A stretch of DNA of 64,000 nucleotides from Shigella phage sb1. The notes under the pieces are model-generated. The model did no database searches and was not told where the DNA came from. It saw nothing but the letters and a program-made list of their open reading frames with translations. The position numbers and the translations under genes were made by a program. Of the stretch, positions 14,807 through 15,219 are shown piece by piece; position 1 is the stretch's first letter; each line of letters starts with the position of its first letter. The stretch lies in the sequence record PQ666539; one strand, given 5' to 3'.

Positions 14807-15219
14807 TATTTTCCAGCCTCAAATGCTCGCATGTCTTGAATATGCTTAATAGCAAATCCGCGTGATTTAATAGCATCAAGAGCTCCGCTACAGAAATCCA
14901 ATAAAATTCCCCAATATTGTAATGAAGTATCAACTTTTAAAACATCCTTATCAGCTGATAGAACTGTCTTCATTTCTGATTTCTCATAACGGTCCATACT
15001 AAATTCATCACCATCTACTCGTCCCGAGTAGTAGTCTAATTTAGCTTTAAGAGCAACTTTTTTCTGTGCTTCAATTCTAAGCATTTCCTTTTTAATACTT
15101 GAATGCTTATTGAGCCATTTACTATATAACATCACATTATTAGCTGCTTCATACTGTAATTTAGTCGAATCTATAAACACATCTTTCTTCAAGTCTTATT
15201 GAAGATCTTCTAATCTCAT
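14806..15219 (-). pseudogene. uvsY: recombination mediator UvsY, interrupted by in-frame TAA at codon 8 (plus 15196..15198)
   Basis: ATG at 15217..15219 gives MRLEDLQ-stop-DLKKDVF...; 138 codons total, matching the 137-aa T4 UvsY. Confidence 0.85.

Follow-up and report, generated by a model that had tools for sequence, protein, structure and literature searches.

The uvsY gene is non-essential in bacteriophage T4: its mutants are viable and show a DNA-arrest phenotype. In the T4 reference (NC_000866), uvsY is annotated at 114914-115327 and a replication origin point (rep_origin) at 115321. The minimal element of this origin, oriF or ori(uvsY), spans ~100 bp and is composed of a middle promoter and a downstream unwinding element; R-loop formation is sequence-nonspecific, the unwinding element is not required to have its exact sequence, and heterologous elements can take its place (Kreuzer and Brister 2010, PMC3016281).

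The window analyzed here, a stretch of 64,000 nucleotides from Shigella phage sb1 (PQ666539), was assigned by megablast to Tequatrovirus, nearest to the pSs-1 group (96.6%/95.3% for Ec_YwIITB1, 95.8%/95.3% for pSs-1 and ~96%/95% for sb2 and sb4). It aligns collinearly with the terminal ~64 kb of pSs-1, a segment that begins with the tail sheath and tube genes and reaches as far as motA. Comparison of the list of open reading frames with the annotations of T4 and the relatives placed uvsY between gene 25 and uvsY.-1, the same position as in T4.

On the minus strand, the 5' end of uvsY reads ATG AGA TTA GAA GAT CTT CAA TAA GAC TTG AAG AAA, with the start codon at 15219-15217, and the frame translates as MRLEDLQ-stop-DLKKDVF...AFEAGK-stop. 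Thus, the TAA described in the earlier note is present in the sequence, and the record as it stands has a UvsY frame interrupted at codon 8. On the coding strand a G has become T, equivalent to C>A at 15198 on the plus strand. When the translation with Glu restored at codon 8 was used as the query, it matched the Pfam UvsY family (PF11056) over residues 10-137, with an E-value of 6.3e-52 and a score of 175.8 bits (cutoff 22.8). The Pfam domain bears out the statement that the codons after the stop match UvsY, but 129 codons rather than 130 follow the stop in this gene of 137, and they carry two more private missense changes, E9D and G68V. The codon-9 change (15193) lies 5 nt from the stop-creating base. 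Downstream of the stop, a residual frame opens at a TTG codon; it is relevant solely if the stop is real, in which case re-initiation two codons past the stop would be possible.

The alignment to reference uvsY sequences that had been proposed as a check was run, and codon 8 is GAA in 13 of 13 relatives. Codons 8-9 are GAA GAA in all 13, among them T4 and five IMG/VR contigs. The 31-mer containing the TAA had no match in IMG/VR, while masking its two variable bases as N brought up five matching contigs, all five with GAA GAA. The window was aligned with Sfk20, UGKSEcP2 and teqhal over 521 nt covering the promoter and the gene; it differs from teqhal by exactly three private transversions, at 15198, 15193 and 15017. 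Over 701 nt of the uvsY region, the best of 502 matching records reached 99.3% identity.

The T4 reference puts oriF at the seventh base of uvsY, and the stop does lie within the oriF-homologous region, as the earlier note had it. The MotA box and the -10 element of the window were assigned by inspection against the published consensus (PMC3016281), a MotA box near -30 with a sigma-70-type -10 reading into the origin element, rather than with a scoring tool, and the resulting middle promoter is near-identical to that of T4. A sigma-70 promoter scan upstream of uvsY found no -35-type promoter, as expected for middle promoters, which have no -35 box. Columns 1-100 of the alignment (15201-15300) comprise the promoter and the leader and are identical in the window, Sfk20, UGKSEcP2 and teqhal; this identical block stops 2 nt short of the stop-creating base. 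The first 60 nt of uvsY contain ~72% A+T by direct count, as compared to a window mean of 64%, and this 5' region corresponds to the unwinding element of T4 oriF. The 15198 and 15193 substitutions both fall in this putative element, where one raises and the other lowers the A+T content. Even if real, they should leave origin function unaffected, given the properties of the T4 origin. As to whether neighboring origin bases are also altered, one more base is changed (15193, an A>C/T>G transversion, a class that is also elevated window-wide), whereas the promoter is unchanged. Evidence for the implied origin lesion is absent.

Two further features were observed near uvsY. A terminator-like hairpin with a T-rich tail lies at 15298-15310 on the plus strand, within the 3' end of gene 25 and on the strand opposite gene 25 and uvsY; the chance expectation of the scan was ~0. 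At the uvsW/uvsW.1 junction (14060-14110, plus strand), uvsW (503 aa) ends at a TAA in both the window and pSs-1, followed by the G+C-rich hairpin GGGCTTCGGCCC and then the 76-codon uvsW.1. At this junction T4 lacks one base (A-ATAAGCTTCGGCCC), and its reference record has one continuous UvsW of 587 aa annotated. The split in the pSs-1-like phages may either be real or be bypassed.

The stop in uvsY does not stand alone. A tblastn search of the window with all 89 pSs-1 proteins as queries gave alignments that were, with few exceptions, full-length and in a single piece, and no frameshifts were found among the 89. In-frame enumeration nevertheless yielded 28 premature stops in 20 of the 89 genes, 27 of which are made by G:C>T:A changes (GAA>TAA, GAG>TAG, GGA>TGA, TCA>TAA and TAC>TAA, from Glu, Gly, Ser and Tyr codons). 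By type, 22 are TAA, three TAG and three TGA. The affected genes encode head proteins (scaffold gp22, with two stops, and major capsid gp23), baseplate proteins (gp51, gp27 with two, gp29 and gp48), tail-fibre proteins (gp34 with four, gp35 and gp36) and proteins of DNA and nucleotide metabolism (gp32, NrdA with two consecutive stops, uvsW.1 and uvsY). The others are alt, the Rz-like spanin, the alc-like gene (two), RNA ligase 1 (two) and three small hypothetical genes. The stops in gp23 and gp32 were verified by direct translation. Hence the lesion peculiar to uvsY and oriF that the earlier note implied is one of 28 stops in 20 genes, many of them strictly essential. The features of the uvsY region and all of the stops are listed in Table 1.

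Table 1. Features of the uvsY/oriF region and premature stops in the window (positions counted from the first letter of the window; relatives' codon in the fourth column).
Position	Strand	Feature	Relatives	Basis
14806..15219	-	uvsY CDS, 137 codons, stopped at codon 8		translation, Pfam, uvsY annotation in relatives and T4
15196..15198	-	TAA, uvsY codon 8	GAA	sequence comparison
15193..15195	-	GAC (Asp), uvsY codon 9; E9D	GAA (Glu)	private A>C at 15193
15016..15018	-	GTA (Val), uvsY codon 68; G68V	GGA (Gly)	private G>T at 15017
14806..15192	-	residual 128-aa ORF from TTG (codon 10), with the whole Pfam UvsY domain		ORF list, Pfam
15260..15289	-	uvsY/oriF-type middle promoter: MotA-box-like ATAATGCTTCA at 15279-15289, TATAAT -10 at 15260-15265		
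15213	-	counterpart of the T4 rep_origin oriF point, 7th base of uvsY		NC_000866 annotation
5097..5099	+	TAA, scaffold gene 22 codon 25	TCA	
5367..5369	+	TAA, scaffold gene 22 codon 115	GAA	
6672..6674	+	TAA, major capsid gene 23 codon 274; sole non-G:C>T:A stop	TTA	
14130..14132	+	TAA, uvsW.1 codon 11	GAA	
16664..16666	+	TAA, gene 51 codon 102	GAA	
17689..17691	+	TGA, gene 27 codon 194	GGA	
18130..18132	+	TAA, gene 27 codon 341	GAA	
18952..18954	+	TGA, gene 29 codon 65	GGA	
20739..20741	+	TAA, gene 48 codon 67	TAC	
22641..22643	-	TAA, 96-aa hypothetical gene codon 93	TCA	
24504..24506	-	TAG, alt (ADP-ribosyltransferase) codon 178	GAG	
30391..30393	-	TAA, 71-aa hypothetical gene codon 57	TAC/TAT	
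34742..34744	-	TAA, 78-aa hypothetical gene codon 22	GAA	
38072..38074	-	TAA, Rz-like spanin codon 29	GAA; sb4 also TAA	
38251..38253	-	TAG, host-transcription-inhibitor (alc-like) gene codon 135	GAG	
38437..38439	-	TAG, host-transcription-inhibitor (alc-like) gene codon 73	GAG	
39293..39295	-	TAA, RNA ligase 1 codon 183	GAA	
39446..39448	-	TGA, RNA ligase 1 codon 132	GGA	
43452..43457	-	TAA TAA, nrdA codons 124-125	GAA GAA; sb4 has the second TAA	
48265..48267	-	TAA, gene 32 (ssDNA-binding protein) codon 9	GAA	
51772..51774	+	TAA, gene 34 codon 371	TCA	
51841..51843	+	TAA, gene 34 codon 394	GAA	
52702..52704	+	TAA, gene 34 codon 681	GAA	
54211..54213	+	TAA, gene 34 codon 1184	GAA/GAG	
55164..55166	+	TAA, gene 35 codon 209	GAA	
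56285..56287	+	TAA, gene 36 codon 190	TCA/TCG	

To place these stops among all of the changes in the window, we defined a change as private where the window differs and four relatives, projected onto it, all agree (59,744 positions). At 913 of these positions the window carries a private substitution, and 271 of the 913 (30%) are C>A/G>T (142 C>A and 129 G>T). With the relatives as the focal sequence, the same class accounted for 19 of 408 private changes in the well-assembled pSs-1 (5%), 53 of 545 in sb2, 59 of 691 in Ec_YwIITB1 and 165 of 701 in sb4. The rate of this layer in the window is 1.28% of the comparable G:C sites and 1.18% of the coding G:C sites. Within coding sequence it gives 31 synonymous, 202 missense and 24 nonsense changes, distributed over codon positions 1, 2 and 3 as 97, 94 and 66. 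Enumeration of all possible G:C>T:A changes at coding sites gave a neutral expectation of 23 synonymous, 204 missense and 30 nonsense changes, and the observed counts do not depart from it (chi-square p=0.14). In contrast, the private A>G/T>C changes comprise 209 synonymous, 39 missense and no nonsense changes (codon positions 29/16/203), as is usual under purifying selection. Beneath ~250 changes that were never exposed to selection, the window is therefore the sequence of a natural Tequatrovirus shaped by selection.

The other transversion classes differ from the dominant one. Private A>T/T>A changes are mostly natural-looking (60 synonymous, 34 missense and one nonsense), while A>C/T>G changes are also raised, with 68 in the window as compared to 19 in pSs-1 (28 synonymous and 32 missense in the window). 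The error layer is thus not purely G:C>T:A, and the uvsY codon-9 change belongs to this minor class. Along the 64 kb, the C>A/G>T events are evenly spread, at 9-30 per 4 kb. Neighboring G>T and C>A events showed none of the strand coherence that damage to one template or errors within one read would produce (runs test z=-0.02), and the trinucleotide context had a weak influence, with ~4-fold variation and no clear motif. At short range, however, 22 neighboring pairs lie within 10 nt of each other against 11.2 expected (P=0.002); the uvsY codon 8/9 pair and the tandem TAA TAA in nrdA codons 124-125 are examples of such bursts.

At the rate of the layer, nonsense codons would be expected in ~23 of the 89 genes, against 20 observed. 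In uvsY itself, 25 sites turn into a stop on a G:C>T:A change, and the probability of one or more nonsense codons at the window-wide rate is 26%. Given this chance expectation, and given that the mutation is of the same type as the layer, the uvsY stop needs no special explanation. Taken alone, it would be biologically tolerable. The layer as a whole would not be: no phage carrying nonsense codons in genes 22, 23, 27, 29, 48, 32 and 34-36, which are essential in T4, can form plaques. With stops in these essential genes, the sequence as written describes no viable phage, and we therefore attribute the layer to the record. Accordingly, we consider the TAA at uvsY codon 8 to be a base-level error in the sequence record and not a property of a living phage, with a probability of roughly 0.9.

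Several other readings were weighed against this one. A genuine ochre mutation in uvsY, beside unrelated errors elsewhere, would leave either a knockout of the recombination mediator UvsY or the 128-aa re-initiation product; the dispensability of uvsY in T4 speaks for it, as does the TTG frame, which begins two codons past the stop and keeps the whole Pfam domain. Nonetheless, it is extremely unlikely, given that the G>T type, the rate and the local clustering all match the genome-wide unselected layer, that this small gene holds two further private transversions, that an error stop in uvsY had the 26% chance computed above and that the allele is absent from the 13 relatives and the IMG/VR contigs. 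The changes might instead be real mutations in a dead molecule, hypermutated through guanine oxidation or by growth in a host with defective 8-oxoG repair, and sampled from few templates. G:C>T:A is the classical outcome of 8-oxoG, and mutations never tested by growth are expected to be unselected. However, ~250 mutations in 64 kb with 28 nonsense codons are incompatible with a plaque-former or a population consensus; damage copied from one template strand would be expected to produce long runs on the same strand, which the runs test (z=-0.02) does not show, and the short-range bursts suit poor read segments better than independent lesions. We judge this reading very unlikely, and somewhat less likely still the fuller claim that the G:C>T:A layer is a real hypermutated T4-like genome from one or a few molecules, with a real uvsY/oriF lesion in it. 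If that were true, the genome would be a natural snapshot of the unselected mutational spectrum in a T-even phage.

Corruption of the sequence in silico after assembly, whether deliberate or accidental, would explain why the layer consists of substitutions only, evenly spread and strand-symmetric, with no indels. It is exceedingly improbable in view of the single dominant class, since a random process would give the 12 substitution types equally, and of the clustering within 10 nt, which is unexpected from a uniform process; moreover, the public sibling record sb4 has the same class in excess. The many in-frame stops without frameshifts could also suggest that the stops are read through, by reassignment or by a phage-encoded suppressor tRNA, and that the genes are functional. 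Yet the relatives have sense codons at every stop site, the same class yields the 202 unselected missense changes, and the hosts of the clade (E. coli and Shigella) use the standard code, so that the probability of read-through is close to nil. Stop-codon reassignment or suppression was ruled out, as TAA, TAG and TGA are all used and replace E, G, S, Y and L.

Returning to an error in the record, the substitution layer exists, is unselected and breaks essential genes. We infer its technical cause from the pattern of substitutions alone. The window would be a pSs-1-like Tequatrovirus segment overlaid by ~250 substitution errors, almost all of them G:C>T:A. Such errors would strike codons at random and turn GAA, GAG, GGA, TCA and TAC into stops, with uvsY as one of the 20 genes hit; in the true phage, uvsY is most likely intact and the same as in teqhal, and the oriF-type origin is most likely normal. 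The likeliest cause is a consensus built from too few or poor reads that carry a G>T/C>A error class. The source of this class could be guanine oxidized during library preparation, or G/T miscalls; four-colour Illumina chemistry is known to confuse G and T in base calling. Poor read segments would account for the short-range bursts, and the absence of indels argues against a homopolymer-prone or nanopore-type error. Nanopore miscalling of glucosyl-hydroxymethylcytosine was likewise not favored, indel errors being wholly absent.

The sibling record sb4 (Shigella phage, PQ666542.1) belongs to the same clade as the window and shares its genome layout, the fragmentation of essential genes and the excess of unselected C>A/G>T changes. 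Its annotation lists 301 features and breaks up alt, gp27, gp48, ligase, rnlA and motA, and its private C>A/G>T changes are unselected (12 synonymous, 112 missense and 29 nonsense). It differs from the window in a large A>T/T>A class that is also unselected (23 synonymous, 86 missense and 16 nonsense), whereas this class is mostly natural-looking in the window. Two stop positions are identical in both, in the Rz-like spanin at codon 29 (38072-38074) and in nrdA at codon 125 (43452-43454), where three other relatives have GAA; the affected sites are otherwise different. By hand computation, ~0.3 shared nonsense sites were expected against these two, and 17 of 140 C>A/G>T sites are common to the window and sb4, a modest excess over the 5-9% in other pairs. 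This sharing hints at error hot spots or at a common data or pipeline origin, but is not conclusive. A literature search for the sequencing method of the Kolkata sb phage records did not find it. Weaker signs were seen in two other records (PQ356294.1 and PQ666540.1), with a split gp34 in sb2 and split gp23, hoc and nrdB in Ec_YwIITB1.

These findings call for a quality warning. Single-gene "lesions" in the window should be presumed errors unless the relatives share them; this covers stops, odd missense changes and altered motifs at G:C positions, as about one in 80 G:C positions is unreliable. Since deposits of this clade can share the defect (clearly in sb4, more weakly in sb2 and Ec_YwIITB1), truncated or mis-sense T4-like proteins may enter the databases.

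The pattern can be compared with a described laboratory artefact. C>A/G>T substitution is documented as a non-biological product of guanine oxidation (8-oxoG) in library preparation, and the published artefact is found in a low fraction of reads and with a read-orientation bias (Costello et al. 2013, PMC3616734). The window has the same dominant substitution class, the same unselected pattern and the same lack of indels, but its errors are fixed in the consensus, whereas those of the artefact occupy a small, orientation-biased fraction of reads. Given that the published artefact is confined to low read fractions, a very low read depth or a fault in consensus calling would be required in addition.

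With respect to the T4 oriF locus, the order 25 - uvsY - uvsY.-1 and a MotA-type middle promoter directly upstream of uvsY are common to both. In the T4 leader, a 10-bp tandem duplication (CCAATAACAA twice) is found downstream of the middle promoter and ahead of the uvsY start, in the oriF region. The leader of the window has a single copy of CCAATAACAA, at about 15231-15247 on the minus strand, and Sfk20, UGKSEcP2 and teqhal are the same as the window there; the difference in copy number appears to be natural length variation of the origin transcript leader. The window further differs from the T4 uvsY locus by the three private transversions, which we ascribe to error. With its promoter intact and its gene in all other respects the same as in a normal relative, the locus adds nothing new to uvsY/oriF biology. 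An early stop in uvsY is also found in laboratory T4 uvsY nonsense mutants, but their essential genes are otherwise intact, whereas the window has stops in at least 12 essential genes.
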